Shown: piece after piece, positions 1-24,666 of the stretch | How the letters are laid out: each line of letters begins with the position of its first letter | Numbering within the stretch: the first letter of the stretch is position 1 | From: an uncultured Ignavibacteriaceae bacterium | GTDB lineage: Bacteria > Bacteroidota > Ignavibacteria > UBA10030 | DNA: 44,075 bases | Direction: 5' to 3' | Assembly: GCA_964362905.1 (NCBI GenBank) | Contig: CAYIHQ010000002.1 | Location: 1 to 44,075 of the forward strand | Program-made: the position numbers and the translations under genes | The notes under the pieces: generated by a model | What the model saw: the letters and a program-made list of their open reading frames with translations, nothing else | Told to the model about the DNA's origin: nothing | Databases searched by the model: none

Positions 1-240
1 AAAGAACTACACTTTCACCCAAGTAGCTGTTATTACTACTGTTTTTACTAAAAATACTACTAAAATATCTAGAAATACCAGTTAAATAGCTAGAATCACT
101 AGTAAATCCACATTTTGTAGCTATTTTATAACTAATTATTACACCAAATGGTAGTAAAATTGCTATTACTACAAGTAAAAGGGAAAAAAGTATACGCAAA
201 AAGGTCCTTTTAGGCATATTTAACCTTTCTATTTCCCGAT

Positions 241-290
241 ATGAGACATTCAATACGATACATTCAATATGAGACATTCATTATGAGACA
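241..290. repeat. 14-bp tandem repeat (~3.5 copies, ATGAGACATTCAAT), junctions forming TCA-N3-TGA palindromes
   Basis: ATGAGACATTCAAT ACGATACATTCAAT ATGAGACATTCATT ATGAGACA read directly. Confidence 0.85.
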
Positions 291-323
291 GGCATAGACC
301 TTGCACTAGCAATAAGTATACCA
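290..323. promoter_or_regulatory. Convergent pair of sigma54 -24/-12-like motifs
   Basis: AGGCATAGACCTTGCA (+, 290-305) and TGGTATACTTATTGCT (-, 308-323) fit TGGCAC-N5-TTGC spacing. Confidence 0.55.
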
Positions 324-706
324 GCTCATAGTGAGGCATTCAAAATGATACTAGTATGGTTATTGCTATATGCAATACTAGTACTAGTTCTTAGAGTGTG
401 GCGGCAAACGAGCACGCCCTAGAAGGACTAGGTGCAAGATAAGGTCCAATTATTAGAATTCTCAAAATGATACTAAGATCAAGTGTTGCAAGAATTGGGC
501 TTGTATCACATTGAAGCACAATCCGGATTTATTCTCATTATGAAGCGTATAACTTATCTAATTCGTATATAAGTTTTACACAATATAACTATATGATCTT
601 ATTGAATAAATTGTAATACAGCTTATAATGTCTATAAGTTCTACAATTTCCAATATCGATACAACTTGTAACTATAAGAAATTACACAGTATTCTCATTG
701 TGATAC

Positions 707-722
707 TAGCACCTATATTGCA
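707..722 (+). promoter_or_regulatory. sigma54-like promoter for the first early operon
   Basis: TAGCACCTATATTGCA (AG instead of GG at -24), 50 bp upstream of the ATG at 772 with AAGGAG SD. Confidence 0.5.
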
Positions 723-771
723 ATTACAAGTAGTACAGCTAACAATTAAGTTAGCATAACAAGGAGTACGT

Positions 772-996
772 ATGATAGACAAAGTAATAGTATCAAAGGA
801 TAGGACACAAGCTATAATCTATTTCATCAACAAGTCATGCTTAACAGTATATCATGACAAAGGACTAGTACTAGATCTTGTAGCATGGTTTATGTTGCCC
901 GTGGGCAATACTAATCATGACATAACATGGGATGGACTACTAGCTTCTGACGAGAATACTGATATTAACATGCAATTAACTGGAAAGGTAGCCTAA
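772..996 (+). CDS. Hypothetical early protein, 74 aa
   Basis: ORF with AAGGAG SD. Confidence 0.75.
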   Translation: MIDKVIVSKDRTQAIIYFINKSCLTVYHDKGLVLDLVAWFMLPVGNTNHDITWDGLLASDENTDINMQLTGKVA

Positions 997-997
997 T

Positions 998-1126
998 ATG
1001 CTAAAACAATATAAACATGAATTACTAATGGCATTATTTTTAATTTCAGTAATACTTGCAGGTACTTATGTTATGTACCAAATTAATACAATTAACTATT
1101 ATGAGGTGATCTATGGACTTAAGTAA
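998..1126 (+). CDS. Small membrane protein, 42 aa (not in ORF track)
   Basis: MLKQYKHELLMALFLISVILAGTYVMYQINTINYYEVIYGLK; AAGG SD, one hydrophobic segment, fills the gap between two genes. Confidence 0.65.
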   Translation: MLKQYKHELLMALFLISVILAGTYVMYQINTINYYEVIYGLK

Positions 1127-1613
1127 TATTAAATACACTCCTATATTATTAGGCATTCAAAATGACCGAATCAATTGGGCTATACTAGTAAATGATCAGG
1201 AATTCAGTTATTTTCAAGGTCTAGGTTATCTTGCGGCTAAAGTCGATAAGAACGACTCTAGATCATTATGGAACGGCGTAGACCTAACTAAACTAACAAA
1301 GGAAGCCAAAATAAAAGCTTGTAGAGCAGTCTTGCCCTATAGTAAACGACTAACGGTAAATGACTTTGAATGGACTAATGTACTCTATGTTAAAAATCCT
1401 AAGATTGAAGACTTGCTAGATTGTCTCTTCTTAGATGCACAATCCCATGAATCTAGTTTTGAGTCGTGGTGCGACGAATTAGGCTATGACCAAGACTCAA
1501 TTAAAGCAAAAAAGACTTATGACCTTTGCATAGAAGGTTATTTCAAGCTCAAAAAAGCATTAGGCAAAGATTACGAAGCTATAAAACTACATATAGAATC
1601 TCTAAACGTATAA
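1113..1613 (+). CDS. Hypothetical phage protein, 166 aa
   Basis: GAGG SD; C-terminal motif LLDCLFLDA..SFESWCDELGYDQDSIKA resembles conserved phage hypothetical proteins. Confidence 0.8.
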   Translation: MDLSNIKYTPILLGIQNDRINWAILVNDQEFSYFQGLGYLAAKVDKNDSRSLWNGVDLTKLTKEAKIKACRAVLPYSKRLTVNDFEWTNVLYVKNPKIEDLLDCLFLDAQSHESSFESWCDELGYDQDSIKAKKTYDLCIEGYFKLKKALGKDYEAIKLHIESLNV

Positions 1614-1626
1614 CAAGAGGTGTAAA

Positions 1627-2295
1627 ATGAATATACTCACACAAAACAGTAAAATGAAGAAGTCTTCTAAAAATGGCATAGATGTCTACAACTTTGGCAT
1701 TCCAGCATTTCAGTCTAAAACTGGACTTAGGACTTGCCCTAATGCTGGTAGTTGCGCAAGCGGATGTTATGCTAAAAGTGGAACATATAATTTTAATAAT
1801 GTTATCAAAGCTTATGAAGACAGACTGCAATTGACTCAAGACAAAGACTTCATAGAGATCATGAGCGCAGAGATTAACCTTAAGTACTTGAAATCTAAGA
1901 CAAAAGGAAATAAATGTCTTATAAGAATTCACGACTCTGGCGACTTCTATAGCAAAGACTATGCTAGAGCATGGATAAGGATTATCGAAAATAATCCTAA
2001 TGTTGAATTTTATGCGTACACTAAAATGGTACAATTGTTTGAGGACTATATAGCAATATTGCCTAAAAACTTTAAGGTCATATATAGTTTTGGCGGCAAA
2101 CAAGACGCCCAGATCGACATTAATAAGCATTATCACTCCAAAGTATTCGATTCTGTGGAAGCATTACAAGCCCAAGGTTATACCGACGCCACAAACGACG
2201 ACCTTATTGCAGCTTTAGGAACTGACAAAAAGATAGGGCTTGTATATCACGGCATCAAAAAGTATGCCAATACTAATTGGAACAAAGTTGCTTAA
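1627..2295 (+). CDS. GP88 (gene product 88)-like protein with a radical-SAM-like Cys cluster
   Basis: TCPNAGSCASGCYA, RIHDSGDF, FYAYTK motifs; GAGG SD. Confidence 0.75.
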   Translation: MNILTQNSKMKKSSKNGIDVYNFGIPAFQSKTGLRTCPNAGSCASGCYAKSGTYNFNNVIKAYEDRLQLTQDKDFIEIMSAEINLKYLKSKTKGNKCLIRIHDSGDFYSKDYARAWIRIIENNPNVEFYAYTKMVQLFEDYIAILPKNFKVIYSFGGKQDAQIDINKHYHSKVFDSVEALQAQGYTDATNDDLIAALGTDKKIGLVYHGIKKYANTNWNKVA

Positions 2296-2305
2296 CAATA
2301 CATAT

Positions 2306-2343
2306 AGGCATGAGTATTGCAATATACTGCAATACTTGTGCTA
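2306..2343. promoter_or_regulatory. Inverted repeat made of two convergent sigma54-like motifs; may also act as a terminator hairpin
   Basis: AGGCATGAGTATTGCA (+) atatac TGCAATACTTGTGCTA (- strand TAGCACAAGTATTGCA). Confidence 0.5.
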
Positions 2344-2541
2344 TCTCTGTTTGATACATAATCCGGATCGTGCAGGTAGTTATGTATCACAACGATATGT
2401 ATAACTTGTAACAATTGTATATAAGTTTTTCATATACTTAAGTTACTAGTATTACTAGTTATTATTAAATATATCATTATGGTATACACAAGTTCTACAG
2501 TTTCCTATTATGAGACCGGAGTGTAATCACATAGTTACCTA

Positions 2542-2557
2542 TGGCACCATCTATGCA
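2542..2557 (+). promoter_or_regulatory. sigma54-like promoter for the second early operon
   Basis: TGGCACCATCTATGCA, upstream of AAGGAG SD and ATG 2595; IHF-like AATCACATAGTTA at 2525-2537. Confidence 0.55.
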
Positions 2558-2594
2558 TTAGTTATTAGTATCAACAACCAACAAGGAGCGTAAC

Positions 2595-2687
2595 ATGAAA
2601 ACAGTAACGGTAGACCAAGTGATAGTACTACTTCTGGGTACAACAGGTCTAATTTTCGTTCTATCTATTTTATGCAAGGTAGTGTAA
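2595..2687 (+). CDS. Small membrane peptide, 30 aa (not in ORF track)
   Basis: AAGGAG SD; MKTVTVDQVIVLLLGTTGLIFVLSILCKVV. Confidence 0.65.
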   Translation: MKTVTVDQVIVLLLGTTGLIFVLSILCKVV

Positions 2688-2688
2688 C

Positions 2689-2790
2689 ATGAAAAAACAA
2701 GTACTCATAATAAAAAGTAGTTACATAAATGATATACAGATAGCTAAACTAGAATTATTAGGTTATAAAGTAATAATAATTTTAAAATAA
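2689..2790 (+). CDS. Small protein, 33 aa (not in ORF track)
   Basis: AAGG SD; MKKQVLIIKSSYINDIQIAKLELLGYKVIIILK. Confidence 0.55.
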   Translation: MKKQVLIIKSSYINDIQIAKLELLGYKVIIILK

Positions 2791-2827
2791 ACCGTAGTAT
2801 TATACTACATAACAAAGGAGACAATAC

Positions 2828-3067
2828 ATGTTCCAATTTAAGAAAACAGACTTCGTGTCTACTAGAGTCAAGACTATCATCAATTCTCATGTTGAGAGTC
2901 GTGGCACCATATGGCTACTTAGTCTAGGTTATCAGGAATGCAATGACTATGCTGAATTGGTCCGTACCACAGTGAGTCAATGCAGTGGCTTTGAGCATAT
3001 CAGGTTCGAAACTGTAGCTCGATATATAAGAGCAACTAAGAATGCTCTTAGGAACTCGCAACTGTAG
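2828..3067 (+). CDS. Hypothetical protein, 79 aa
   Basis: AAGGAG SD; its 3' end is duplicated (see repeat at 3011). Confidence 0.75.
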   Translation: MFQFKKTDFVSTRVKTIINSHVESRGTIWLLSLGYQECNDYAELVRTTVSQCSGFEHIRFETVARYIRATKNALRNSQL

Positions 3068-3110
3068 CTCGATATATAAGGGCAACTAAGAATGCCCTCA
3101 GAAACCAGCA
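3011..3110 (+). repeat. Imperfect 50-bp tandem duplication
   Basis: 3011-3060 versus 3061-3110, both starting ACTGTAGCTCGATATATAAG. Confidence 0.95.
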
Positions 3111-3141
3111 ACCTGCCCAACCTAAGTAATATCAATATGAT

Positions 3142-3164
3142 ACTGGGGCCATATAGGCCCTAGT
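3142..3164. terminator. Stem-loop, possible terminator
   Basis: ACTGGGGCC-ATATA-GGCCCTAGT; weak U tract. Confidence 0.4.
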
Positions 3165-3206
3165 CTCTAAACAATACATAGTATTAATTATAACATAGGA
3201 GTACTT

Positions 3207-3404
3207 GTGCGAAAACCTAATTTTGAATTACAGAAAATTAAATTACAGCAGAAACAATTACAGCTGGCGCAGATATCTAAACAATTGGAATTATTGAATT
3301 CTCAAGTTAGGACAGTAACGGATAGATTAGAAGCTAAACAAGGAGAAGTTACTTTCATTGAAGATCTTCTGAATAGTGCAGTATCTCCTGCAGTATCAGA
3401 ATGA
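3207..3404 (+). CDS. Short coiled-coil protein, 65 aa
   Basis: AGGAG SD with GTG start; Gln/Leu heptads. Confidence 0.7.
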   Translation: MRKPNFELQKIKLQQKQLQLAQISKQLELLNSQVRTVTDRLEAKQGEVTFIEDLLNSAVSPAVSE

Positions 3405-3426
3405 TACAGTACTAATTCTGTACTGG

Positions 3427-3456
3427 CCCTTGTATTGCAATGATACAAGGGTTTTT
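3427..3456 (+). terminator. Intrinsic terminator
   Basis: CCCTTGTAT-N7-ATACAAGGG followed by TTTTT. Confidence 0.65.
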
Positions 3457-3488
3457 ATTGTTAATAGTTGTATTACTATATGTTTCTT

Positions 3489-3531
3489 TGGTATTAAAAT
3501 TGCATATATAATATTTGGCATTGAAATTGCA
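3489..3531 (+). promoter_or_regulatory. Two tandem sigma54-like motifs
   Basis: TGGTATTAAAATTGCA (3489-3504) and TGGCATTGAAATTGCA (3516-3531). Confidence 0.55.
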
Positions 3532-3800
3532 TGAAGGGGATACGGTGAAAGTGATCACCTCCCCTTATACCCCTCCAGAGGGATCTAGACCCGTTCTAAA
3601 ATTTAAAAAAAAATTAAAAACGACCATTAGCGATTATAAGCCCTTTAACGAGAGTTTGGCCTAGTTAACCCTTAGATAGCCACTTGTCTTAACAAACCCA
3701 GCCACGGCCCTGCTAGGGCCTTTAAAAGGGCATTGGCAGGTAATCTGTAAGGGCCCACCTCAGGCACAGATTAAACTCACTTATATTGAATCTAAAAATT

Positions 3801-4178
3801 TTAAAAAATTCTAAAATCAGTTACTAAAGGTTCACCATCAGTACCCCAACCACAGATAATACCTTCTCCAAGAAATCTAGGTCTTTTAAAAAAATCTTCG
3901 CTATAACCCATAGGATATACTTCAAATCCATTAACAATCTCAAATACTGATAAACCTTTTAGTTTAGGGTATGATTTATATGGGGGAGCCAAGGTTTTAT
4001 TACAAACAGATAAACCATCTTTAGGAGGAATACCATATCTAGAAAATTTAATAGATTCACCTATTCTATCCAATCTTTTATTATGTGTATTTAAGTAATT
4101 TTCCCAAAAGATATTTCCCGGTGATTTACCTCTTTTTTTGAGAATTTCTTGTCTTTCATAATCACTCAATATTTTCAT
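3801..4178 (-). CDS. Hypothetical protein, 125 aa
   Basis: Last gene of the leftward small-gene array. Confidence 0.65.
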   Translation of the reverse strand: MKILSDYERQEILKKRGKSPGNIFWENYLNTHNKRLDRIGESIKFSRYGIPPKDGLSVCNKTLAPPYKSYPKLKGLSVFEIVNGFEVYPMGYSEDFFKRPRFLGEGIICGWGTDGEPLVTDFRIF

Positions 4179-4180
4179 AC

Positions 4181-4390
4181 TTATAGTATCGCACTTCTAA
4201 AAAGGATCTTACCTATCTTACTATGGTAAATATCTGGATTTATTAGATATTTAACATCTTCTGTAGGATATCTTCTAATCATACCATTAGTAATAATACA
4301 AGGATAAGGCTTATCACATAATCTTATAGCAGGATGGAACATAACTATATTACCAGTTCTCACATCAATCTTTTTTATGAATTTGACCAT
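4181..4390 (-). CDS. Small protein with C-terminal KILFR tag
   Basis: Start codon embedded in the upstream gene's LYG codons with AAGG SD. Confidence 0.7.
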   Translation of the reverse strand: MVKFIKKIDVRTGNIVMFHPAIRLCDKPYPCIITNGMIRRYPTEDVKYLINPDIYHSKIGKILFRSAIL

Positions 4391-4655
4391 ATAACACCTT
4401 TAAAGTAGGATTATCGTATATATTGCCTATATATACTAAATAAGGTAATTTATCGAAAAACTGAGCACCATAGTTAATAAAAGTCAAATTTCCCCTTAAT
4501 GTTTCTAATATGTAAATACCTTTAGTAGAATTTACATAAGGTCCAGTGTAGTCACTAATAAGTACTATTCCTTGTTTATCATATATTTCAGCATTAGGAT
4601 CATTATACTTTGTTATGTGAATTATATCTCCTACTTTAAATCTTACATCTACCAT
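4365..4655 (-). CDS. Small SH3/KOW-like protein with KVLYG tag
   Basis: FKVGDIIHI N-terminus; IGNIYDNP (YopX-like C-terminal motif) precedes LKVLYG. Confidence 0.75.
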   Translation of the reverse strand: MVDVRFKVGDIIHITKYNDPNAEIYDKQGIVLISDYTGPYVNSTKGIYILETLRGNLTFINYGAQFFDKLPYLVYIGNIYDNPTLKVLYGQIHKKD

Positions 4656-4854
4656 ATAAAAGCTTTCCGTTCTTAATTAGCTTAAGATCTTTTTCCTTAA
4701 CCAATTCAACATCTTGGTCGTCTAGAAACTGTACCCAGTACAATTTTACTTCCTCTTGAAATATAACTGGAGGTATAAAAACCCGGCACGGTCTTTCTTT
4801 AAAGAGAAGTATTTCTTGCTGTAATTCATAACCGTTAACTATATATTTCTTCAT
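4636..4854 (-). CDS. Small SH3/Tudor-like protein with KLLYG tag
   Basis: YWVQFLD..VKEKDL beta-barrel pattern; GKLLYG C-terminus. Confidence 0.7.
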   Translation of the reverse strand: MKKYIVNGYELQQEILLFKERPCRVFIPPVIFQEEVKLYWVQFLDDQDVELVKEKDLKLIKNGKLLYGRCKI

Positions 4855-4934
4855 GATAATGCTTCTACTGTTCTTTTGTCTAATTTTGACTTATTTATTT
4901 TTATTAAAACTAAGTCTTTGATTTTTAATAGCAT
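4851..4934 (-). CDS. Possible 27-aa remnant of the tagged family (not in ORF track)
   Basis: MLLKIKDLVLIKINKSKLDKRTVEALS, ATGA overlap with the next gene; resembles the LIKI..KAVKLLY tails of other members. Confidence 0.35.
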   Translation of the reverse strand: MLLKIKDLVLIKINKSKLDKRTVEALS

Positions 4935-4987
4935 TATTAATTTTTAGCATAGTAACCCTAAAAATGCAAGCAATTTATTTTAGGCTT

Positions 4988-5014
4988 AATAAGTTGACTT
5001 AGTATATACATATA
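4988..5014 (+). promoter_or_regulatory. Repeated promoter or operator element, copy 1
   Basis: AATAAGTTGACTTAGTATATACATATA identical at 6677-6703; 21-bp core also at 7494-7514. Confidence 0.7.
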
Positions 5015-5053
5015 CACTTGTATGTATATATATTATAAAGTGCAATATAACAC

Positions 5054-5090
5054 AGAATTTAAGAGCTTCTTATAAAAGCTCTTAAATTCT
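5054..5090. repeat. Perfect 15-bp inverted repeat in the divergent intergenic region
   Basis: AGAATTTAAGAGCTT-N7-AAGCTCTTAAATTCT. Confidence 0.9.
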
Positions 5091-5221
5091 AAGTATAGTA
5101 TATATATATTATATACTATTCTTTATTGATTAGAATAAACTTCCTTAATCCCCTACCCCTTAATGGTTTCTTGTTGACTTGTTTGTTTAGTTGTGGTACA
5201 CCTATTGCATGGAGGTGCTCT

Positions 5222-5449
5222 TTGAATTTTGATAGTATTATATCTGACGAAATAGATAATCAGTTATTAGGAGATCCTTGGTTAAAAAAGTCGCCGTACA
5301 AAAATCAAGCTACAGGAGAGATTAAATATATGGACACCTATGACTTGTATCTAGTAGCTAAAAGTCTTTATTTCGCAAATATTGGTAAATTATGGCAATC
5401 TATTCCAGATTCGTTACCTTTAAGGTTGTTATATGGCCCGAAAGATTAG
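5222..5449 (+). CDS. Small protein with RLLYG tag (probable TTG start at 5222 rather than 5126)
   Basis: GGAGG SD at 5211 followed by an in-frame TTG. Confidence 0.65.
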   Translation: MNFDSIISDEIDNQLLGDPWLKKSPYKNQATGEIKYMDTYDLYLVAKSLYFANIGKLWQSIPDSLPLRLLYGPKD

Positions 5450-5705
5450 TAAATATTATGTTGGTATGCTACTTAGGCATAAAAAACATGGTTTCACTGT
5501 TAAACTTTTAGACAAGCATCGTACTACAAACTGGGTATTCGAAGTAGTTGCAGGAGAACTCCAGGAAAAGCTTAGGCCAGGTTTTGTTTTTGATGAATAT
5601 CTAATCACATATCGTGTGTATAGCTATGCTACTATTCGTAATAGTTTTGAACCTTTAACTGATAGTACTGTAGGAAGGCTGTTATATGGCACCCAAAAGT
5701 TCTAA
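5433..5705 (+). CDS. Small SH3-like protein with RLLYG tag
   Basis: YYVGMLLRHKKHG N-terminus; start embedded in upstream LYG. Confidence 0.75.
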   Translation: MARKISKYYVGMLLRHKKHGFTVKLLDKHRTTNWVFEVVAGELQEKLRPGFVFDEYLITYRVYSYATIRNSFEPLTDSTVGRLLYGTQKF

Positions 5706-5988
5706 ACTACCGTATAGAGTAGGGGATAGAGTTCGCCACAAACATGGAGCAGAATATGAGATTATGATCATTTCTGATCTTTTTTATTCAAACGGTTGTT
5801 ATAAACTTAGAAATTTAACTAATGGTTGTTTGGATAATTCGTGTTGGGTTATGAGTGGTGTGCTTAATAGAGACTATGAACCTTGCAGTCCTGCCATTAA
5901 GATGTTGTTCGGTCGAGGTAGCGCAGCTACAAGCCCTCCTTCAGCGAATGGACCAGTGGTAATTCGGGGAGGTCTCGATGGCGATTGA
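5686..5988 (+). CDS. Small SH3-like protein with KMLFG tag and low-complexity tail
   Basis: YRVGDRVRHKHG N-terminus. Confidence 0.75.
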   Translation: MAPKSSKLPYRVGDRVRHKHGAEYEIMIISDLFYSNGCYKLRNLTNGCLDNSCWVMSGVLNRDYEPCSPAIKMLFGRGSAATSPPSANGPVVIRGGLDGD

Positions 5989-6196
5989 CTATCAGGTGGG
6001 AGATGTTATTAAACCAAAAAATCAATACTTCATGTATTTGAATCCCTGCCTAGTTTTAGATATTACGGAAAAAGGAGTTGTTTGCATAATAGTAGGACAA
6101 CCAGTAAGCACAAAGTTTGAAATACCGAATTCACAAATGCACCTTATGACTAAAGATGATACAGGAACTGTTCTATATGGCAATAAAGAGAAATAG
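5978..6196 (+). CDS. Small SH3/KOW-like protein with TVLYG tag
   Basis: GGAGG SD; YQVGDVIKPK. Confidence 0.75.
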   Translation: MAIDYQVGDVIKPKNQYFMYLNPCLVLDITEKGVVCIIVGQPVSTKFEIPNSQMHLMTKDDTGTVLYGNKEK

Positions 6197-6401
6197 CATA
6201 GTAAGACGTATAAGCACCAGTGAAGTATTTGAAGTTGTTGATATAGTTGGGAAATTACTACTGTGTGATCCTATTAATCTACCTTCTTTAAAAGGACTTA
6301 AAGTTCCTTTAACAGAAGATGAAATAGAGGTTATTATGGACGAAGATACTGATGTATTTAATTTATTATTTAGGAGTGACACTGATGGTGAAGGGTCTTG
6401 A
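6177..6401 (+). CDS. Small SH3-like protein with NLLFR tag (start revised from 6156)
   Basis: ATG embedded in upstream LYG codons with AGGA SD; MAIKRNSIVRR. Confidence 0.7.
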   Translation: MAIKRNSIVRRISTSEVFEVVDIVGKLLLCDPINLPSLKGLKVPLTEDEIEVIMDEDTDVFNLLFRSDTDGEGS

Positions 6402-6447
6402 TGTTCCAGAAAGTAAAGTTACAAAGTTATTATATGGACAAAGCTAA
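6385..6447 (+). CDS. 20-aa micro-ORF consisting essentially of the tag (not in ORF track)
   Basis: AGGAG SD at 6372; MVKGLDVPESKVTKLLYGQS; its LYG codons contain the next start at 6434. Confidence 0.6.
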   Translation: MVKGLDVPESKVTKLLYGQS

Positions 6448-6691
6448 TAAATTCCTAAAAGGTGATTATGTACTGGTAGAAGTAGGATCTCCTCTAATAG
6501 AGGTTGATATATGGGTAGGTTATATAGCTCATGTGGGCAAAACCTGTTATGCCATTGAAAATTTAAGTATTGGGGCTAATTTTGTAACTAAGTTACCGTT
6601 TTTATTTGATAATATGCTAATAAAAATAGAGCCTTCTAACCTAAAAAACACAATAAAAGCAGTTAAATTGCTGTACAATAAGTTGACTTAG
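6434..6691 (+). CDS. Small SH3/KOW-like protein with KLLYN tag (start revised from 6398)
   Basis: FLKGDYVLVE; IKAVKLLYN. Confidence 0.7.
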   Translation: MDKANKFLKGDYVLVEVGSPLIEVDIWVGYIAHVGKTCYAIENLSIGANFVTKLPFLFDNMLIKIEPSNLKNTIKAVKLLYNKLT

Positions 6692-6703
6692 TATATACAT
6701 ATA
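6677..6703 (+). promoter_or_regulatory. Repeated promoter or operator element, copy 2
   Basis: Identical 27 bp to 4988-5014; TTGACT -35-like hexamer, overlaps the upstream stop codon. Confidence 0.7.
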
Positions 6704-6756
6704 TATTATATATAGCTATCCTGCAACCTATTTCACCAGGACAATAGATACTTTAT

Positions 6757-6990
6757 ATGAAAATACGCTTTATAGAATATCACAACGACATCTATGTAGT
6801 CATAGGGATTACTTATGATTCTAGACATAACTATCCTGAGTGCTTTGTAGCGACTCCTCTTAAAGACTTGAACCCGTCAATCTTTAGATCTATTTTGCAA
6901 TTATATACTTTAAATATCCCATTTGTTGATGCTAAAGAGATAACTGACAAAAACAGACTTATATCATTGATGGTGTTATATGGTAGGTAG
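6757..6990 (+). CDS. Small protein with MVLYG tag
   Basis: ORF; tag contains the next ATG at 6980. Confidence 0.7.
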   Translation: MKIRFIEYHNDIYVVIGITYDSRHNYPECFVATPLKDLNPSIFRSILQLYTLNIPFVDAKEITDKNRLISLMVLYGR

Positions 6991-7222
6991 CAACTTTAGT
7001 CCAGGCGATTATGTTAAGTACAGAAATGCTATTTATATAGTGAAAACAATTATTTATATGAATCCAAATGTACTAAATGATCCATTTGTGTGTGGTTTAG
7101 TTTCTGTAGGAAACTCTAATAATCATGAACAACTATTAGTTAGAGAAGGTTTGCTGATTAAAGTAAACCCTCCAATTAATGAGAAGGCTACAAAGGCCGT
7201 AAAGGTACTATATGATAATTAA
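6980..7222 (+). CDS. Small SH3/KOW-like protein with KVLYD tag
   Basis: FSPGDYVKYRNA; TKAVKVLYD. Confidence 0.75.
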   Translation: MVGSNFSPGDYVKYRNAIYIVKTIIYMNPNVLNDPFVCGLVSVGNSNNHEQLLVREGLLIKVNPPINEKATKAVKVLYDN

Positions 7223-7502
7223 GGTCGGGGATTACTTAATAACTAAGGAAAATCAATTATTTAGGATAATCGATGTGCATACAGATAGTAAATGTACATA
7301 CTATGACATAAAAAGTATGCAGGCAGAAGAAGTTGCAAGTAGTAGCTACGAATGGGGTCAAGATTCTGTCTGGTTAAGTCGGAAAATGCCAAAAACCATC
7401 AGATCAGTACCGAGAAATGTGCTAAAACACATGGGTAAAGTAATCCCAGAAGAGAAAATTACAAGAAGTGTAAAGATTTTATATGGTAAAACATTGACTT
7501 AG
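7212..7502 (+). CDS. Small SH3/KOW-like protein with KILYG tag
   Basis: IKVGDYLITK; RSVKILYG. Confidence 0.75.
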   Translation: MIIKVGDYLITKENQLFRIIDVHTDSKCTYYDIKSMQAEEVASSSYEWGQDSVWLSRKMPKTIRSVPRNVLKHMGKVIPEEKITRSVKILYGKTLT

Positions 7503-7514
7503 TATATACATATA
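7494..7514 (+). promoter_or_regulatory. Repeated promoter or operator element, copy 3
   Basis: TTGACTTAGTATATACATATA. Confidence 0.7.
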
Positions 7515-7524
7515 ATATATTAAT

Positions 7525-7848
7525 GTGAGGAACCTGATGTCTAAACTTAAAAATAAGAAGAAACCAGACAAACTCACAGACGAGCACAGTTCTAAGTTAT
7601 TGGAAGACTTAGATAATTTTGATAACGGATTCTTTTCAGCTTTAGCTGAAACCAGTAAATATGAAATTATATCGACAACAATGGATGATGGCGAAGTACT
7701 TACCAAAGAACAGTACGCATTGGTTAAGACCGAATGCTCACGTTTAGGATTGAAAGTACTTTATCAAATTCATTTTAAAAACGGTAACTCCATATTTATG
7801 AATCCAGAGAATTTAAAGACAGGATATATTCACGAAGGAATGCACTAA
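7525..7848 (+). CDS. Hypothetical protein (likely start at ATG 7537)
   Basis: GAGGA SD before MSKLKN. Confidence 0.7.
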   Translation: MRNLMSKLKNKKKPDKLTDEHSSKLLEDLDNFDNGFFSALAETSKYEIISTTMDDGEVLTKEQYALVKTECSRLGLKVLYQIHFKNGNSIFMNPENLKTGYIHEGMH

Positions 7849-7962
7849 GTAAGTCAAATGTTTCATTCAACCTTATTAATTGTTTTATTTAACAAAAAAG
7901 GAAACTAGGAACTTTTACTATAACATTCCATGATATATCCTATCTTATTTTGAGGAGAAAAT

Positions 7963-8202
7963 ATGGTAGGAAAAATTAAGTATACTTGCAAAAATTGTGG
8001 GTGGACTACATCTATTAGAGAAGAGTGGGCCGACTTGAGGCCAAAACGTTGTATGAATAAAAAATGTAATACTAGCTTTCATCGCTCCCCAGATTCACTA
8101 ATAGTAGAGTTACCACAAAAAATTGAGAATGTTGTTCAAAAACAACCTCTCAAAAAAGTTAAGAAACAAGATGAAATAGAATCTGATAATAAAGAGAGTT
8201 AA
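7963..8202 (+). CDS. Small zinc-ribbon protein
   Basis: CKNC...CMNKKC; GAGGAG SD. Confidence 0.75.
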   Translation: MVGKIKYTCKNCGWTTSIREEWADLRPKRCMNKKCNTSFHRSPDSLIVELPQKIENVVQKQPLKKVKKQDEIESDNKES

Positions 8203-8204
8203 AT

Positions 8205-8798
8205 ATGGGCGATAAAGAAGATAAAAATTCTCCAGATAAAAGGCTTAATGCCTCTGCAGAGCATCTAAGAGCTTATAAAGAAGAAGCCGGGCTTAAATCT
8301 ACTGCTCAGTTAGAAGCGTATAGAGCTATCAAGAAATTATCTCCAGAAGGTTCCATGTGGACCTTAACTCAACAATTATTACAAGAAGTCATGGCAGGAC
8401 ATACAGTTATTAATCCTGAGAGTTTGCCGCCATTAACGCAAATGGTAGAAGAACTCAAAAACGAGATTGAGAAGAGATATGCGGACGAGCTAGAACTCAA
8501 AAAACTACTTTTAGATAGCATCCCTACAATGAGATCTGTAAGAGAGTGGGTTAAGAAAGAGGGATGGGATGAAGCTATTTGGGGATATGTTAGAGCTGAA
8601 GGACTTTTTACTGCATCTAAAAGAGCACAAATGATTGAGTCTCTACGAACTCGTGGATTAGATAGATCAGATGTTGCAGCAAAAATATGGCTCACCCTTT
8701 CTGGAGATTATTCAGAAAAGATGGAAGTTGATAATAAATCTGTAGATATGTACCGAGAGATTAATAATATTTTGCACGGCAAGAAAAAGCAAGAATAG
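8205..8798 (+). CDS. Putative terminase small subunit
   Basis: Helical 197-aa protein directly upstream of TerL; assignment mainly positional. Confidence 0.5.
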   Translation: MGDKEDKNSPDKRLNASAEHLRAYKEEAGLKSTAQLEAYRAIKKLSPEGSMWTLTQQLLQEVMAGHTVINPESLPPLTQMVEELKNEIEKRYADELELKKLLLDSIPTMRSVREWVKKEGWDEAIWGYVRAEGLFTASKRAQMIESLRTRGLDRSDVAAKIWLTLSGDYSEKMEVDNKSVDMYREINNILHGKKKQE

Positions 8799-8821
8799 GT
8801 ACTCTGAGAAGAGCGATAAGT

Positions 8822-10435
8822 ATGCCAGAGATTCAATATAATACAGAAGGTAAACCTCTTAGAATTCATGAACTGGATATAGAAGGATTAGCTGAATATT
8901 TATATAAAAATAAAATTAGAACTACTCAGGGTAAACTAATTCAACCTTTACATTCAGGACATTTGAGCGTAGTTTCCGATCCAGCTAGATTTAAAGTCTT
9001 AGCTTGCGGAAGACGCTGGGGTAAAACTTTGCTGACCTCACTTACAGCCCTCGCTGTATTAATGCAGATGAATCGTAGAGTATGGATTGTAGCCCCTGAT
9101 TACAGTTTATGTGAAAAAGTATTTAGAGAACTTTATCATATTCTTGTTGTTCAATTAAAGATTATTCGTCCTGGTAAACCTGGAGGCGGAAGAGCTAGAA
9201 ATCAAAAAGGAGACTATTATTTAGAAACTCCTTGGGGTTCTGTTCTTGAAGCCAAATCTATGGAAAATCCAGATTCGTTAGCTGGAGAAGCTAATGACCT
9301 AGTTATTATTGATGAGGCCGCACTAAACCAATCCTTAGAGGATATTTGGATGCAGATGTTGCAACCGACTCTTATGGATAAATCTGGCAGTGCTATTTTT
9401 ATTAGCACTCCTCGTGGTAAGAACGGTTTTTACAAATTATTCCTATATGGTCAAACTGGTAGAAAACAAAGAGAAGGTAAAATAGCTATTAGTTTTGATG
9501 AAGAAGCTGGCGTATCTAATGATATGCAAGATTGGAGTTCTTTTCAAAAAAGTAGTTATGATAATCCTTTATTAGCATCCAATGCTCAAACTTCTAAAGA
9601 AGAGATCGACTCTGCTTATCGACGTGCGGCGCTATCTGGTAAACTTCTTAAATTCAAACAAGAATATCTTGCAGATTTTGAAGCTGTTTCTGATAGTTGT
9701 TTTCCTGGTTTTTTGGTAGACCCAACCGATAACAGCCCATTTCCACATGTAATAGATTATATTTGGCATCCTGATGAAGGGCCAGTATACGCTGCTTGCG
9801 ATCATAACTTTGCAAAGCCCGCAAGTACTATTTTTGCTCAAGTAAATAAATATGGTGATGTAGTTATATTCGATGAGAAATTTACTCCGCATACAACAAG
9901 TTACATGCAGGGACAACAAATTCTAGACAAGCAAAAAGAGCTAACAACTCAAGCAATCAGGATTTGGAAGAATGAAGTAGCTGAACTAGGAGTTAAGCGT
10001 CATATAAAATTTGAAGCTATCGTAGCTGATATATCGGGAGACCAAGTTCAACTTAACGGTAGAACTTGTTGGGACGATTTGGAATCTATATTAGGTAGAC
10101 GACCTACAGGGCTTAAACAAGATAGAGAAACAGGAGCCAATATGATTAGACTGTGGATGAATTTTCCACAATTCGATCATAAAGGAAGTCCTTTATTTGA
10201 TGAAAATAAACAGCAAGTAAAGAGACCTAAACTATTTATTACTAGAAATTGCGTAAATACTATTTATGCTATAAGTACAGCAGTATTCAAAAAAGGTAAA
10301 AATGGAGTTCTTAAAGAGGATTATGATGAGTCACCAGAAGGTTATGAAGGTCTTATAGATGCTTTACGATATCTCATGGTTCATTTATTCCACGATAAAG
10401 GAAATCATTTCACAGTTGTTAAGGGAGTTAACTAA
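8822..10435 (+). CDS. terL: Terminase large subunit
   Basis: Walker A CGRRWGKT, Walker B LVIIDEAA, motif III ISTPRG, FKQEYLADF, RNase H-like nuclease with C-terminal DALRY. Confidence 0.96.
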   Translation: MPEIQYNTEGKPLRIHELDIEGLAEYLYKNKIRTTQGKLIQPLHSGHLSVVSDPARFKVLACGRRWGKTLLTSLTALAVLMQMNRRVWIVAPDYSLCEKVFRELYHILVVQLKIIRPGKPGGGRARNQKGDYYLETPWGSVLEAKSMENPDSLAGEANDLVIIDEAALNQSLEDIWMQMLQPTLMDKSGSAIFISTPRGKNGFYKLFLYGQTGRKQREGKIAISFDEEAGVSNDMQDWSSFQKSSYDNPLLASNAQTSKEEIDSAYRRAALSGKLLKFKQEYLADFEAVSDSCFPGFLVDPTDNSPFPHVIDYIWHPDEGPVYAACDHNFAKPASTIFAQVNKYGDVVIFDEKFTPHTTSYMQGQQILDKQKELTTQAIRIWKNEVAELGVKRHIKFEAIVADISGDQVQLNGRTCWDDLESILGRRPTGLKQDRETGANMIRLWMNFPQFDHKGSPLFDENKQQVKRPKLFITRNCVNTIYAISTAVFKKGKNGVLKEDYDESPEGYEGLIDALRYLMVHLFHDKGNHFTVVKGVN

Positions 10436-11598: not shown

Positions 11599-13482
11599 AT
11601 TTCTTTTAATCTAGGCATCGCCAATCATCCTATTAGTCGATTAGGTGGATTAAGTTCTGTTGGCGTGTATCTTTACGAAGATATTTATTATCGACAATGG
11701 ATAACAGAAATTGCACTAGCTTTTTATGAAGGTCGTCAAGACGAATTTGTGTGGCTTGATTTAGTTAGACAATTTCGTAATCCAGAAAAACAGCAGATCC
11801 TTCCTATGAATCTTACAAAAGAAATCATAGATGAAGTTTCTATTTTATATCAAGAAGCACCAATTTATCAAGTAGTTGATGAATCAGGTAAACTTCTTAA
11901 AAATGATCAAGAACTTTGGAAACAAATTCAAAACGACTCTCGTTATCTTATGATAATGGATAAACTAGACAGATGGACTAGATTACTAGGAACTGTATTA
12001 GTTAAAGTGAGTTTTGTAGATCCTGAAAGTGGACAATTAGTAAAAGAAAATGCAGGCGGTAAAGTACAGCTAGATGTCATGCATGGTGGTGTTTATGATA
12101 TACGTCATGGTGCTTCACCTTATTACATTACAGAACTTTTAATTGGTTTTGGTACAAAATTTGGTGGATGGCAACATGAGAGTGGTATGATGGCTGGTGG
12201 TGGCGTAGCAGCCACAATTCCTAGTCCTTCTAGCTATGGAGTTGCTGATGCCAGAGCAAAAGCTGGATTCCATTACAATGAAGTAGGAAGTATTAACGAC
12301 ATTGGTAAGGTCAACAGAATTTACTGGAGCCCGAATACTCATGTTATAACTGACGATAAAAATAATGGTTATAAAGTAGATAATCCTTACGGAATTATAC
12401 CTGCAGTGCCATTTTTCAATAGCGATCCTGCCCATTACTATTTTCTGCCCATAAACGAACCTCTTATTTATGCTAATCATGCATTAAATATGAGAATTAC
12501 AGATCTAAATCATATTGCTAAATTCCAATCTTTTGGAGTTCCTGTTGTTAAGGGAGTTGAACGACCGACTTCAATACGACAAGGAAGACCAGTTGATGAT
12601 TATAATCAACTTAAGGGTGGAGCAGCTCAATCACGATTTGGAGGATTGGGTGGAGTAAGCGGTATAGGGGCTTCAGGTCAGTATAGAACATTTGATTCAG
12701 GATTTGGCATTTTCAAAGATGGGAATGCTGATGCTAATATGTTAGGTATGAGTCTAGGACCTGATACAGCAGTTGCTGTAGGTGAAAAAGGAGATTTTAA
12801 ATTTGCACACCCATCAGCAGACATTACTGGTTTAGTCAGAACAATTCACTCCATTACAGATATGGTAAGAATTACTCACGGACTAAGAGCTAAGTATGAA
12901 CAGCAATTACCAAGTTCTGGTTTTGCTACAATGATGGAAAAGATGGGCGTTATTGAAGATAATGTTCGCCGATCAAGAATTTTCAAAGAGAGAGAACAAC
13001 AACTTTTTGGTATAATCAAAAAGCTTTGGAATACTCACCACAATAAAGGTGGCGATAAAAAGTTCTCAGAAGATGCACGATTAGAAATAACATACAAAAC
13101 TCCAGATTTTTCAGTAGATCCAAAAACGAAAAAAGAAGATCTTTTAATGGAATCAAAACTTTTGGACACAGAAGATTCTCATATTATCGGGAAACTTTAT
13201 CCACATATGAGTGAGATTGAAATTAAAAATCTAATTAAAAAACGTAGGAAGGATAGACAAGAAAAGGCAGAATTTGATACTGAATTGCAAGTGCAGACTG
13301 GCTTAACCATGCAGGAAAATGGACTTGGACCTGAAGGCGTACCGCCAGAACAAGATGGACTAGATGATGTTCCAGCACCTAAAATTGATAATAGGGCTAA
13401 ACATTCTGAAGAAAGTTCTAAGCAACCAGGAAAAAATTCTGATCCTAGGAAGAAGAAAAAGCCTTCAACTGAGGAGAAGTAA
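11599..13482 (+). CDS. Portal protein (probable ATT start at 11599; ORF track starts at GTG 11665)
   Basis: Position after TerL; FYEGRQ, NLTKEIID, NPYGIIPAVPF motifs of SPP1 gp6-like portals; acidic C-terminal tail; AAGGAGGT SD before in-frame ATT. Confidence 0.88.
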   Translation: MSFNLGIANHPISRLGGLSSVGVYLYEDIYYRQWITEIALAFYEGRQDEFVWLDLVRQFRNPEKQQILPMNLTKEIIDEVSILYQEAPIYQVVDESGKLLKNDQELWKQIQNDSRYLMIMDKLDRWTRLLGTVLVKVSFVDPESGQLVKENAGGKVQLDVMHGGVYDIRHGASPYYITELLIGFGTKFGGWQHESGMMAGGGVAATIPSPSSYGVADARAKAGFHYNEVGSINDIGKVNRIYWSPNTHVITDDKNNGYKVDNPYGIIPAVPFFNSDPAHYYFLPINEPLIYANHALNMRITDLNHIAKFQSFGVPVVKGVERPTSIRQGRPVDDYNQLKGGAAQSRFGGLGGVSGIGASGQYRTFDSGFGIFKDGNADANMLGMSLGPDTAVAVGEKGDFKFAHPSADITGLVRTIHSITDMVRITHGLRAKYEQQLPSSGFATMMEKMGVIEDNVRRSRIFKEREQQLFGIIKKLWNTHHNKGGDKKFSEDARLEITYKTPDFSVDPKTKKEDLLMESKLLDTEDSHIIGKLYPHMSEIEIKNLIKKRRKDRQEKAEFDTELQVQTGLTMQENGLGPEGVPPEQDGLDDVPAPKIDNRAKHSEESSKQPGKNSDPRKKKKPSTEEK

Positions 13483-13844
13483 TGCATCAAAAAGAGGAGA
13501 AAAAACAGATATATGAAGTATGGATTGTCAAATATACTGATGAACCTATTTCTATTCTAACCACAGATAAGTATGATGAGTCATATGAACGGTGGAAAAT
13601 TTTAACAGATATTTGGGTTGCGGCACTAAAAGATAAGACTCCGTTTATTATAACAAGTCCTATCGTTACTGCTTTTGATCCAGGTACTGTTAAAGAAATT
13701 ACAGTAAGACCAACTATAAAAATAGCTGAGTCTAAATATGAAAATCCTTATCAGCAGAAAATGATGAAAGAGGGTTTAAGTAAAGCATTAAAAACCACGA
13801 GTAATATTATAAATCCAGATTTGCTGGACGAAGGTTACTCATAA
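13482..13844 (+). CDS. Hypothetical protein, 120 aa
   Basis: GAGGAG SD, coupled to portal. Confidence 0.75.
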   Translation: MHQKEEKKQIYEVWIVKYTDEPISILTTDKYDESYERWKILTDIWVAALKDKTPFIITSPIVTAFDPGTVKEITVRPTIKIAESKYENPYQQKMMKEGLSKALKTTSNIINPDLLDEGYS

Positions 13845-13874
13845 TCTATCTAGAAGAGCTAGTTAGGAGAAAAA

Positions 13875-14813
13875 ATGTCAGATTTGTTAAACACATTAGG
13901 GAAAAAATCAAATTCAGTAGAAGGGGCTGGTAAAGCATCGGAACCACAACCAGTCTCAGCAAGCGCCAATACCGCAATCCAAGAACATGGACGAGGTGAC
14001 GATTTACTTGCTAAGATCGGTGGTAAAGAGCCTCAAGTCGCCGAAAAACTTGGGGCTTCTAGTGCTGAATCGGGTCATTCCCAAAAATCAGCTTCTGGTA
14101 CGGAAGAGCCTACTGGAGGACAAAACACAGACTGGACAACAGATAGTGCTTTAAAAGAAGTTAAAAAACTTCGTGAAGAAAATAAAGCTTATCGTCTAAA
14201 ATATCAACAAGAGGTAGAAAAACTTAGTTTAGAGTCAGACGCTCGCCTTGAACAACAAAAACGAGAGGTAGAGGCTCTCAGATTGGCGAAGCAAGAACTG
14301 GATAGAATTAAAGCCGAACAAGAAGATAAAAAACGAGATCTTTCAGAAAAATTAGCACATAGAGAAACACGACTTGCAGAAATGCAATCAACTATAGAGG
14401 CTAAAGAACAAGAATGGTCACGGAAACTTTCTGAGCAAGAAAGTGTTGTTCGTCAATATAGAGCAGAGCGAGAAGCTGAAGCTCAAGTTTATCGATCAAA
14501 AGTTGATGAAGAACTTTCAAAAATTCCTGTTAAATTTCAGGACTATGCTAAATTATTAGTTAAGGGTGCTGGAGATTCCAGAGAGGCTCTAGTTGCATTA
14601 TCAGAGGCAAAACTTAAAGGTATGTTTGACGATAAAACTGTTATCGTTAATCACAGCGTACCTAATGCGCATGATGGGGCACGAGCAAGCAAGGAACGAC
14701 TTGAAGAAGCTGAACGCCAACGTAGGGTGGGTATGAACTCTTCCCAAAAAATTGGCGAAGCTCTTAAGCAGATTAAATCAGGCACTCCTAATAATGTTTT
14801 CAGAACAAAATAA
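13875..14813 (+). CDS. Capsid scaffolding protein
   Basis: Disordered N-terminus, VKKLREENKAYR motif, long coiled coil, directly upstream of MCP. Confidence 0.85.
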   Translation: MSDLLNTLGKKSNSVEGAGKASEPQPVSASANTAIQEHGRGDDLLAKIGGKEPQVAEKLGASSAESGHSQKSASGTEEPTGGQNTDWTTDSALKEVKKLREENKAYRLKYQQEVEKLSLESDARLEQQKREVEALRLAKQELDRIKAEQEDKKRDLSEKLAHRETRLAEMQSTIEAKEQEWSRKLSEQESVVRQYRAEREAEAQVYRSKVDEELSKIPVKFQDYAKLLVKGAGDSREALVALSEAKLKGMFDDKTVIVNHSVPNAHDGARASKERLEEAERQRRVGMNSSQKIGEALKQIKSGTPNNVFRTK

Positions 14814-23906: not shown

Positions 23907-24665
23907 ATGTCTAGAGTTATATCAAGCGTAGCTGGTACAAGAACTGAACCTAAGGATAGTTATATCTTTGTGCGAGGAACTACTGCCACATTTAAAATTA
24001 TATTTACTAATGAAGGTAGACCTATTCAAGTAGATACGGCAACCGTACCGCAAATGAAGGTACTACAACCAGCATTTTTGAATAGCGGCAATACCCCAGT
24101 TCCCGAGGTTTATGCAACTATTAATGGAACTTTAGTATCAGGACAAGACTTCGAATATCAATTTGTTTGGGATATTCCAGCAAGCATGGTTCCTTTAGAT
24201 AATTATATCGCTAGTTACCAAGGAATATTAGGAAGTCAGTCTTTTAATTTCGGAGATGAGTTTTTTACTATAGTTCCTGCGGCAGGTATGATAGGCACAT
24301 TAAGCCCAATGTATGCAACAGTTGATGATGTACGTCTCAAAAAATTTAATATAGACACTTATTTACCTGAAGCTTATAGAAAAGATCTCACTACAAGAAA
24401 TATGCTTATTGAGGATCATCTAAGAGATGCTTCTGCCAGATTAAGAGAAGAACTAAATCTTAATCAAATTAGAGGCAATACTAGTAATAATAGATTATTT
24501 TGCATTTACTATACGGTGTATACTATACTTCTTGCGGGTAGGGGAGAAGACGGATCAGCAGTTAGCGATCAAAATATATTATTCTGGAGGAATGAATGTG
24601 AAAGGATTTTAGCTGTTGAGAAGCGACGTGGTGTACTAAATGGAATCCCGATGGGAAGAGGTTAG
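23907..24665 (+). CDS. Putative head-tail adaptor with N-terminal Ig-like domain
   Basis: YATVDDVR followed by a helical domain as in SPP1 gp15/HK97 gp6-like adaptors. Confidence 0.6.
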   Translation: MSRVISSVAGTRTEPKDSYIFVRGTTATFKIIFTNEGRPIQVDTATVPQMKVLQPAFLNSGNTPVPEVYATINGTLVSGQDFEYQFVWDIPASMVPLDNYIASYQGILGSQSFNFGDEFFTIVPAAGMIGTLSPMYATVDDVRLKKFNIDTYLPEAYRKDLTTRNMLIEDHLRDASARLREELNLNQIRGNTSNNRLFCIYYTVYTILLAGRGEDGSAVSDQNILFWRNECERILAVEKRRGVLNGIPMGRG

Positions 24666-24666
24666 G

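Follow-up and report, generated by a model that had tools for sequence, protein, structure and literature searches.

The DNA considered here, the window, comprises the first 44,075 nt of a contig of 113,147 nt and 33.9% GC (CAYIHQ010000002.1, C2 in the following), which is part of a mixed assembly and represents an uncultured tailed phage with a contractile tail (a myovirus) from groundwater. Its genes form two arms, a rightward arm (+ strand) from 0.77 to about 59 kb and a leftward arm (− strand) that reaches from 113 kb back to about 59 kb. Near its beginning the window carries a cluster of sequences that resemble the −24/−12 elements of sigma-54 promoters, which raises the question whether a phage has placed a set of its genes under a host sigma factor of this type. 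Judging from sequence patterns, we regard it as rather probable that the motifs are real host sigma-54 (RpoN)-type −24/−12 promoters for small accessory genes, and that motifs facing each other as mirror pairs are compact two-way modules.

A −24/−12 motif concentrated in two genome arms

The initial annotation had reported a dense cluster of matches to TGGCAC-N5-TTGC at 149–722. The motifs are present where it had placed them or within 1 nt (308 became 309, 371 became 372, 433 became 434, and 2328 became 2329), and their density exceeds that of dinucleotide shuffles, which served as the control for the regional counts. Allowing up to two mismatches to the consensus, six matches were found at 149–722 versus 0.26 expected, a number that was reached by none of 1000 shuffles. 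For the whole window the count was 44 versus 19.1 ± 4.2 in shuffles (0/100 reached 44), 16 of which are located in 1–5300 (2.14 expected; 0/300 shuffles reached this number) and 28 in 5301–44075 (17.6 expected; 0/60 shuffles). With at most one mismatch, six matches remained in 1–5300 versus 0.09 expected (0/300 shuffles).

A position weight matrix was derived from 44 distinct sites in 17 loci of relatives, with the window left out and locus L029 dropped as a duplicate of L024. A matrix scan against shuffled sequence had been named as a check by the initial annotation, and the matches exceeded the shuffles in both arms: at a threshold of 14 bits, five were found in 1–5300 (0.05 expected; reached by 0/400 shuffles) and seven at 97–113 kb of C2 (0.28 expected; 0/40 shuffles). 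The corresponding numbers were zero at 5.3–44 kb (0.47 expected; reached by 40/40 shuffles) and one at 44–97 kb (0.75 expected; reached by 22/40). Matrix matches in the 92 kb between the arms are at chance level, and the enrichment is confined to the arms. In a de novo search of the intergenic DNA of C2, GGCA-N7-TGCA ranked first among the dyads other than TATA repeats (7 versus 0.24). Sigma-70 consensus sites are not enriched in 1–9000 (33 versus 44.5 expected). A sigma-70 reading of the motif, with TTGCA as the −35 element, was rejected, because there is neither a −10-like signal downstream nor an excess of sigma-70 consensus sites. Over 81 sites the information was confined to the −24/−12 block; neither a −10-like element 17 bp downstream nor a fixed element upstream was present.

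The matches in the window are the following:

149–163, + strand: weak sigma-54-like match TGGTAGTAAAATTGC, 6.2 bits, two mismatches, inside the unconfirmed open reading frame (ORF) 2–277 (−)
290–304, + strand: site AGGCATAGACCTTGC, 16.3 bits
309–323, − strand: site, 18.5 bits
352–366, + strand: site with TAG at −24, 13.0 bits
372–386, − strand: site with TAG at −24, 10.7 bits
434–448, − strand: weak match TGGACCTTATCTTGC, 3.6 bits
487/488, − strand: weak match, 2.1 bits at best
707–721, + strand: sigma-54-type site TAGCACCTATATTGC with AG at −24, 12.9 bits, predicted start at about 733
1952–1966, − strand: antisense match with AG at −24, 11.6 bits, inside the GP88-family gene 1627–2295
2306–2320, + strand: site, 11.9 bits
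2329–2343, − strand: site with AG at −24, 9.1 bits
2542–2556, + strand: sigma-54-type site TGGCACCATCTATGC, 16.7 bits, before the small ORFs 2595–2687 and 2689–2790
3489–3503, + strand: tandem site, 13.7 bits, repeat family D18
3516–3530, + strand: tandem site, 18.3 bits, 27 nt from 3489+, repeat family D18
5194–5208, + strand: sigma-54-type site TGGTACACCTATTGC, missed by the initial annotation, 16.6 bits, located where the main series of rightward genes begins

From the earlier list the matrix supports the sites at 290, 309, 352, 372, 707, 2306, 2329, 2542, 3489 and 3516; the low scores of 149+, 434− and 487− mark these three as probable chance matches. GG at −24 and GC at −12, with exactly 10 nt between them, are found at 290, 309, 2306, 2542, 3489, 3516 and 5194 and at all seven strong sites of the far arm. 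The replacement of GG by AG at −24, which had also been reported, is real at 352, 372, 707 and 2329, and it occurs in the intragenic match 1952− as well. The gene around the latter belongs to the Pfam family GP88 (E 3.4e-42), and the same stretch of the GP88-family protein in the relative L014 carries a match at 2554; 1952− may simply reflect the coding sequence. A match at 3424+ represents the stem of an intrinsic terminator. The region of the cluster had been described as gene-free, which is true for 278–771, where only unsupported ORFs of 42–43 aa without family match are present; 149–277 is overlapped by the unconfirmed, open-ended ORF 2–277 (−).

The position of the cluster within the genome became clear from a relative, G001, in which homologues of C2 105.6–112.7 kb are directly followed by homologues of C2 1.4–2.8 kb. 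Because G001 joins homologues of both ends, the ends of C2 adjoin in the real genome, and therefore window 1–770 is the divergence point of the two arms and not a terminal "early" leader. In a complete relative with terminal repeats the motif cluster sits in the middle of the record, so that nothing puts the cluster at a leading end, and the functions as decoy or in DNA entry that the initial annotation had suggested are not required to explain it.

The motif is conserved in relatives, for which 18 IMG/VR loci were found via the terminase (69–84% identity). In the full records of five relatives, matches to TGGYAY-N5-HTGCW versus matches to the same pattern reversed numbered 13/0, 14/1, 12/0, 25/1 and 3/0, and the former cluster upstream of the terminase, in the arms. 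For the anchor GGCA-N7-TGC, 57 occurrences in 36.1 kb of the relatives' arms compare with four in 90.3 kb of their structural regions. When nothing except this anchor was fixed, the free positions of the relatives' sites contained T before GG in 91%, Y after GGCA in 97%, R at the next position in 79%, T before TGC in 65%, and W after TGC in 95% of the cases. The extended sigma-54 consensus is YTGGCACGr-N3-TTGCW, and by these frequencies the free positions reproduce it. The relatives' sites are closer to the canonical consensus than those of the window, in the same arms, and they resemble sigma-54 sites of E. coli that were mapped by chromatin immunoprecipitation (ChIP), such as CTGGCATCGTTATTGCT (excerpt of PMC4591121).

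Only L014 and L019 out of 11 relatives' loci align to window 1–800 at E < 1e-3, and every relative that covers the divergence point carries a mixed-orientation cluster there. Judged by these alignments, the DNA around the sites turns over but the sites themselves persist. The orthologue of 707+ is L014 1747, TGGCACCTATACTGC, in a stretch of 72% identity, which has the canonical TGG where 707+ has TAG, and sites at the same place as 3489/3516 are found in L014 (3835+) and L019 (4078+ and 4097+).

Placement relative to genes and mirror pairs

Most strong sites are co-oriented with the genes of their own arm. The first gene to the right of the divergence point is:

772–996, + strand: first rightward gene, 74 aa, no family

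It is preceded by 707+, with 51 nt from the −12 GC to the ATG at 772 and a Shine-Dalgarno sequence, AAGGAG, upstream of the ATG; 2542+ likewise precedes a start with a Shine-Dalgarno sequence. A Shine-Dalgarno core is found before 91 of 187 called ORFs versus 8% of random 15-mers. The strong sites of the far arm (97778−, 101502−, 103408−, 105141−, 109906−, 112598− and 113050−) are all co-oriented with genes (7/7), and in six of them the next called start lies 17–57 nt beyond the −12 GC, the value for 109906− being 165 nt. The extended flank of 2542+, TAGTTACCTATGGCAC, recurs at 101502(−). In the leftward arm of the relative G004 all sites of at least 13 bits (11/11) are co-oriented with genes. 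The earlier claim that 707 and 2542 are the only sites that face genes was too narrow: seven more strong sites precede genes at 97–113 kb, 3489/3516 face a conserved non-coding element, and 309− and 372− point across the junction into the leftward arm.

The head-to-head arrangement noted before is real for three pairs of sites:

290–323, both strands: mirror pair 1 (290/309), 6 nt between the −12 GCs, predicted divergent starts at about 316 (+) and 297 (−)
352–386, both strands: mirror pair 2 (352/372), spacing 7, TAG instead of TGG in both sites
2306–2343, both strands: mirror pair 3 (2306/2329), spacing 10, beginning 11 nt past the stop of gene 1627–2295

The family contains 12 distinct pairs of convergent sites, with −12 to −12 spacings of 6 (six pairs), 7 (two), 9 (two), 10 and 0; other spacings within −30 to +40 were found only once at 25 and once at 33. 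The start sites are predicted with the C of the GC as position −12, a rule derived from a table note in an excerpt of PMC4591121. Because the −12 elements are 6–10 bp apart, the divergent starts are predicted to be 15–19 bp apart. Paired perfect half-sites are common in viral contigs: at least 125 stretches with face-to-face pairs were found, and at least 127 in the back-to-back control, numbers that reveal no preference for one orientation.

It is very unlikely that the paired motifs are primarily nucleic-acid structures, such as hairpin terminators or sites of processing, or that they have a non-transcriptional role, with the divergence point serving in packaging or as a replication origin. 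The three window pairs fold as hairpins in RNA (−14.0, −16.1 and −21.4 kcal/mol), the last value being that of 2290–2360 with pair 3, which forms a 15-bp hairpin that was flagged as terminator-like. An equivalent pair follows the orthologous gene in G001 (L037 6611/6630), and, inspected by eye, the spacers of both post-GP88 pairs are complementary at 5/5 positions with differing sequences. However, single unpaired sites, which are unable to form such hairpins, represent the majority, and a T-run is missing from most pairs. At the divergence point the pairs make poor hairpins, with a spacer complementarity of only 1–2/5, and a hand count over eleven pairs yielded 29/55. In addition, the half-site spacing varies from 6 to 10, unlike a site for one dimeric protein.

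Regulator, host and competing explanations

Several observations weigh against the reading of the motifs as host sigma-54 promoters. Five window sites (352, 372, 707, 1952 and 2329) contain AG in place of the near-invariant GG at −24. The pair 352/372 aligns with L014 1351–1408 (sites 1383/1403), which has the canonical TGGCAT in both arms, and looks like a decayed copy of this canonical pair; some sites of the present phage may be weak or dead. About one third of the window sites (290+, 352+, 2306+, 2329− and 1952−) have no gene directly downstream, and the predicted start of 5194+ falls past the Shine-Dalgarno sequence of the nearest candidate start, which leaves its relation to the gene start ambiguous. 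In the rightward arm of G004, 12 of 19 sites are antisense to genes, several of them beginning 6–8 nt past a stop codon, and these antisense gene-end sites overlap ordinary terminator hairpins, an arrangement that simple promoter logic fails to explain. An activator ATPase is needed, none is encoded on C2, and no conserved enhancer at a fixed distance was found across the 81 sites. Lastly, the bin that holds C2 is probably not the host.

In L038 (G004), 12370–14775, a unit consisting of a + site, a gene, and a minus-oriented sigma-54-type site after the stop codon is repeated. The minus site starts 6–8 nt past the stop (28 nt in one of the four cases), and in the three close cases its −24 half forms the 5' arm of the plus-strand terminator hairpin.

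Sites in surplus or in antisense orientation (the mirror pairs, 1952−, and those of G004 6–8 nt past stops) would suit a different function, namely that the sites bind sigma-54 holoenzyme, many of them mainly as non-firing closed complexes that act as a sink for the host's sigma-54 polymerase, or as roadblocks and insulators at the divergence point and at gene ends, and that only a minority are promoters. Dense tandem or mirrored arrays, for example four sites within 250 bp in G004 or 3489/3516, point in the same direction, and it has been described that sigma-54 holoenzyme binds in an inactive state and can repress where its site overlaps another promoter (excerpt of PMC4591121). We nevertheless consider this quite unlikely. 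Most strong sites are located upstream of genes, co-oriented with them and at promoter-like distances, the G004 gene-end sites overlap ordinary hairpin terminators, so that termination could be explained without a protein, and for intragenic sigma-54 sites of E. coli roadblock repression was "effectively ruled out" (excerpt of PMC4591121).

The sites are accompanied by further elements:

239–290, + strand: about 3.5 tandem 14-bp units, ATGAGACATTCAAT-like, repeat family D2, the last unit abutting 290+
495–706, + strand: about 200 bp of upstream sequence with a paralogue at 2335–2541, repeat families D8 and D9
3535–3600, + strand: conserved non-coding element GGGGATACGG..TCACCTCCCC..ACCCCTCCAGAGGG, directly after the tandem sites 3489/3516

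The 14-bp units represent an element TCAnnATGAkAy, and six of its seven occurrences in C2 are within 264–3407. Apart from the tandem copies in 239–290 it is present at 340, 462, 695, 3132 and 3396, and single copies abut the −24 element with 0–2 nt play. It is clustered in the same arms of L014, L019 and L024 and absent from more distant relatives; a regulator site or a promoter extension are possible functions. The upstream sequences 495–706 and 2335–2541 have a mean column identity of 76% in a pairwise alignment and share the blocks AATCCGGA, GTATAACTT..GTATATAAGTTTT and AAGTTCTACAnTTTCC. Both paralogous regions (495–775 and 2335–2598) end in a sigma-54-type site, and 495–706/2335–2541 may be candidates for enhancer or regulatory DNA. 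A sigma-70-like site, TTGAAT-16-TATAAT, is situated within 495–706, at 602–629.

The tandem sites 3489/3516 lie downstream of the terminator of gene 3207–3404. The element that follows them, 3535–3600, is present in C2, L014, L016, L019 and L020 with a nearly invariant sequence, and it has no Rfam match. It was rejected as a structured RNA, since in its consensus hairpin only one of nine pairs has a change on both sides, which is no real covariation support. Because the predicted start of 3516+ (about 3542) falls inside its 5' arm, the element may function as DNA or as part of transcripts that start from 3489+.

Proteins that could read or activate the sites were searched for on C2 and in the records of five relatives, and neither Sigma54_DBD nor Sigma54_activat (PF00158) was found above cut-off. 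A six-frame search for Sigma54_DBD in the same sequences gave a best frame of 12.9 bits, which contains a stop. Among the C2 proteins scanned no RNA polymerase family was found, and the AAA+ gene of C2 is of the MoxR type. The leftward arm encodes a protein of 289 aa (94109–94978(−)) with a weak match to sigma-70 region 4 (Pfam Sigma70_r4, E 2.3e-5), a weak FliA match and a YlxM-like C-terminus, which matched PDB sequences only weakly (E 0.05 or worse). This protein may be a late sigma factor of the phage itself.

The presence of this sigma-family-like protein is one argument for the idea that a phage-encoded factor (the 289-aa protein or a small unknown protein) reads the motif and that the likeness to sigma-54 is convergent. 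Window sites tolerate AG at −24, the extra element TCAnnATGAkAy abuts the −24 element in the subgroup of C2, and a weakly sigma-54-like early protein, gp2, has been proposed for phage Q19 (HHpred 94%, E 0.67; excerpt of PMC7693777). However, about 12 positions of the motif agree with the sigma-54 consensus, in exact spacing and also where the search pattern left the base free, promoters of the sigma-70 family have spacers of about 17 bp and no second element exists at that distance, and no Sigma54_DBD-like frame reaches the cut-off in C2 and the five relatives. We regard a phage-encoded reader of the motif as decidedly unlikely.

With respect to the host, the bin of C2 has a median contig GC content of about 60% versus 34% for C2, and C2 is probably mis-binned. 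The same bin holds a second large phage contig (C1, 58% GC) and is mixed. The bin was rejected as host: the assembly contains rpoN and at least eight activator genes, but the contigs that carry them have about 60% GC, and these genes say nothing about the host of the phage. No tRNA genes that could serve as a host clue were found. C2 has no nucleotide match in the cultured phage collection, and its large terminase and DNA polymerase are only 24–33% identical to those of cultured phages, the best match of the polymerase being Flavobacterium phage immuto; these matches do not point to a host. The best genome matches of the GMP-reductase-like gene (45–48% identity) are in assemblies of Bacteriovoracaceae/Bdellovibrionota and Holophagaceae, and rpoN is present in all five genomes tested from these assemblies; this may be taken as a weak hint, and not as a host assignment.

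The mechanism that we infer for host sigma-54 promoters, from sigma-54 binding and start sites to activator, timing and host, would be as follows. Host RNA polymerase carrying the host sigma-54 would bind the sites, because the phage itself lacks an RNA polymerase gene as far as could be detected, and the small accessory, probably early, genes of both arms would be transcribed outward from the divergence point, as would one conserved non-coding element. That these genes are early we infer solely from their position and small size. The head-to-head pairs would be compact two-way modules of which one orientation is occupied at a time, and the pair after the GP88-family gene would double as a hairpin that stops transcripts from upstream. 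Since the phage encodes no activator, its sites could fire only with the help of an enhancer-binding ATPase of the host or of a phage factor that has escaped recognition.

The remaining features of the contig complete the picture of a myovirus, for which tube and baseplate genes were also found:

8822–10435, C2: large terminase
14830–16161, C2: major head protein
27934–29379, C2: sheath

Besides the GMP-reductase-like gene and the 289-aa protein, the leftward arm encodes a family A DNA polymerase, a DnaB-type helicase, a ligase, ERF, dUTPase and a peptide deformylase. An HNH-endonuclease-like gene is inserted in the structural module (24640–25389), and a direct 50-bp tandem duplication (90% identical) at 3006–3105 spans the end of gene 2828–3067 and DNA past its stop. 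A very AT-rich divergent gap (4855–5125) separates the minus-strand cluster 3801–4854 from the main rightward genes; it contains TATA-type runs and a hairpin (5053–5091, 18-bp stem) flagged as terminator-like. A search of window 1–5400 against Rfam gave only a sub-threshold snoRNA match, at 5056–5088.

Known systems and implications for the phage family

Sigma-54 promoters cannot fire without an ATP-driven activator. Like bacterial sigma-54 promoters such as glnAp2 and pspA (E. coli sites in PMC4591121; review PMC7057263), the phage sites have the bipartite form YTGGCAY(R)-N4-TTGCW, in which exactly 10 nt separate GG from GC, and they are short, devoid of −10/−35 elements, upstream of genes and co-oriented with them. 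Unlike the bacterial promoters, they are found on a lytic-type phage, in arrays of 15–25 per genome, and the phage has no detected cognate activator gene or fixed-distance enhancer. Many of them are interlocked as mirror pairs or are antisense at gene ends, and several window sites contain AG at −24.

PeSL cassettes, in which a promoter is fused to a stem-loop and the module is repeated between small variable genes, use sigma-70-type early promoters. As in the PeSL cassettes of T4-type phages (excerpts of PMC2839356 and PMC4122927), repeated modules of promoter and stem-loop flank small variable genes of unknown function in plastic regions of a large myovirus, and 2306–2343 joins a hairpin with a promoter. 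This layout fits 2306–2343 and the gene-end modules of G004, whereas the pairs at the divergence point form poor hairpins. In contrast to PeSLs, the promoter part is of the −24/−12 type, the stem-loop is built of two promoter copies, and sigma-70 sites are not enriched.

In the bidirectional promoters described in bacteria it is the sigma-70 −10 element that is symmetric. The mirror pairs would resemble these pseudo-symmetrical promoters (excerpts of PMC12825309 and PMC10268837) in that polymerase could use a symmetric element in either orientation, with binding in one excluding binding in the other and with predicted divergent starts 15–19 bp apart. They differ in that two complete sigma-54 sites interlock.

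As phage precedents, only a single promoter (YuA) and the weakly sigma-54-like protein gp2 of Q19 were found in the literature excerpts. [quoted passage not shown] In both cases the phage is without its own RNA polymerase and partly reliant on host sigma-54, as reported for YuA and predicted here; unlike the one promoter of YuA, a whole promoter class with two-way modules is conserved across a phage family here.

A wider generalization seems rather doubtful to us at present, namely, that an uncultured myovirus family of about 105–115 kb runs its accessory arms on host sigma-54 without an enhancer-binding ATPase of its own, with the mirror sites as a new type of two-way switch and insulator. 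It implies an unrecognised phage activator, a host activator that is stress-activated and hijacked at infection, or activator-independent firing. If host sigma-54 does read the sites, 15–25 transcription units behind sigma-54 would tie the phage programme to a host signalling switch, or the phage would have an undescribed bypass, and under either option phage genes would be controlled in a new way. As a practical marker, the promoter set would then indicate sigma-54-bearing hosts of uncultured phages, and the mirror modules would offer a compact natural two-way sigma-54 promoter.

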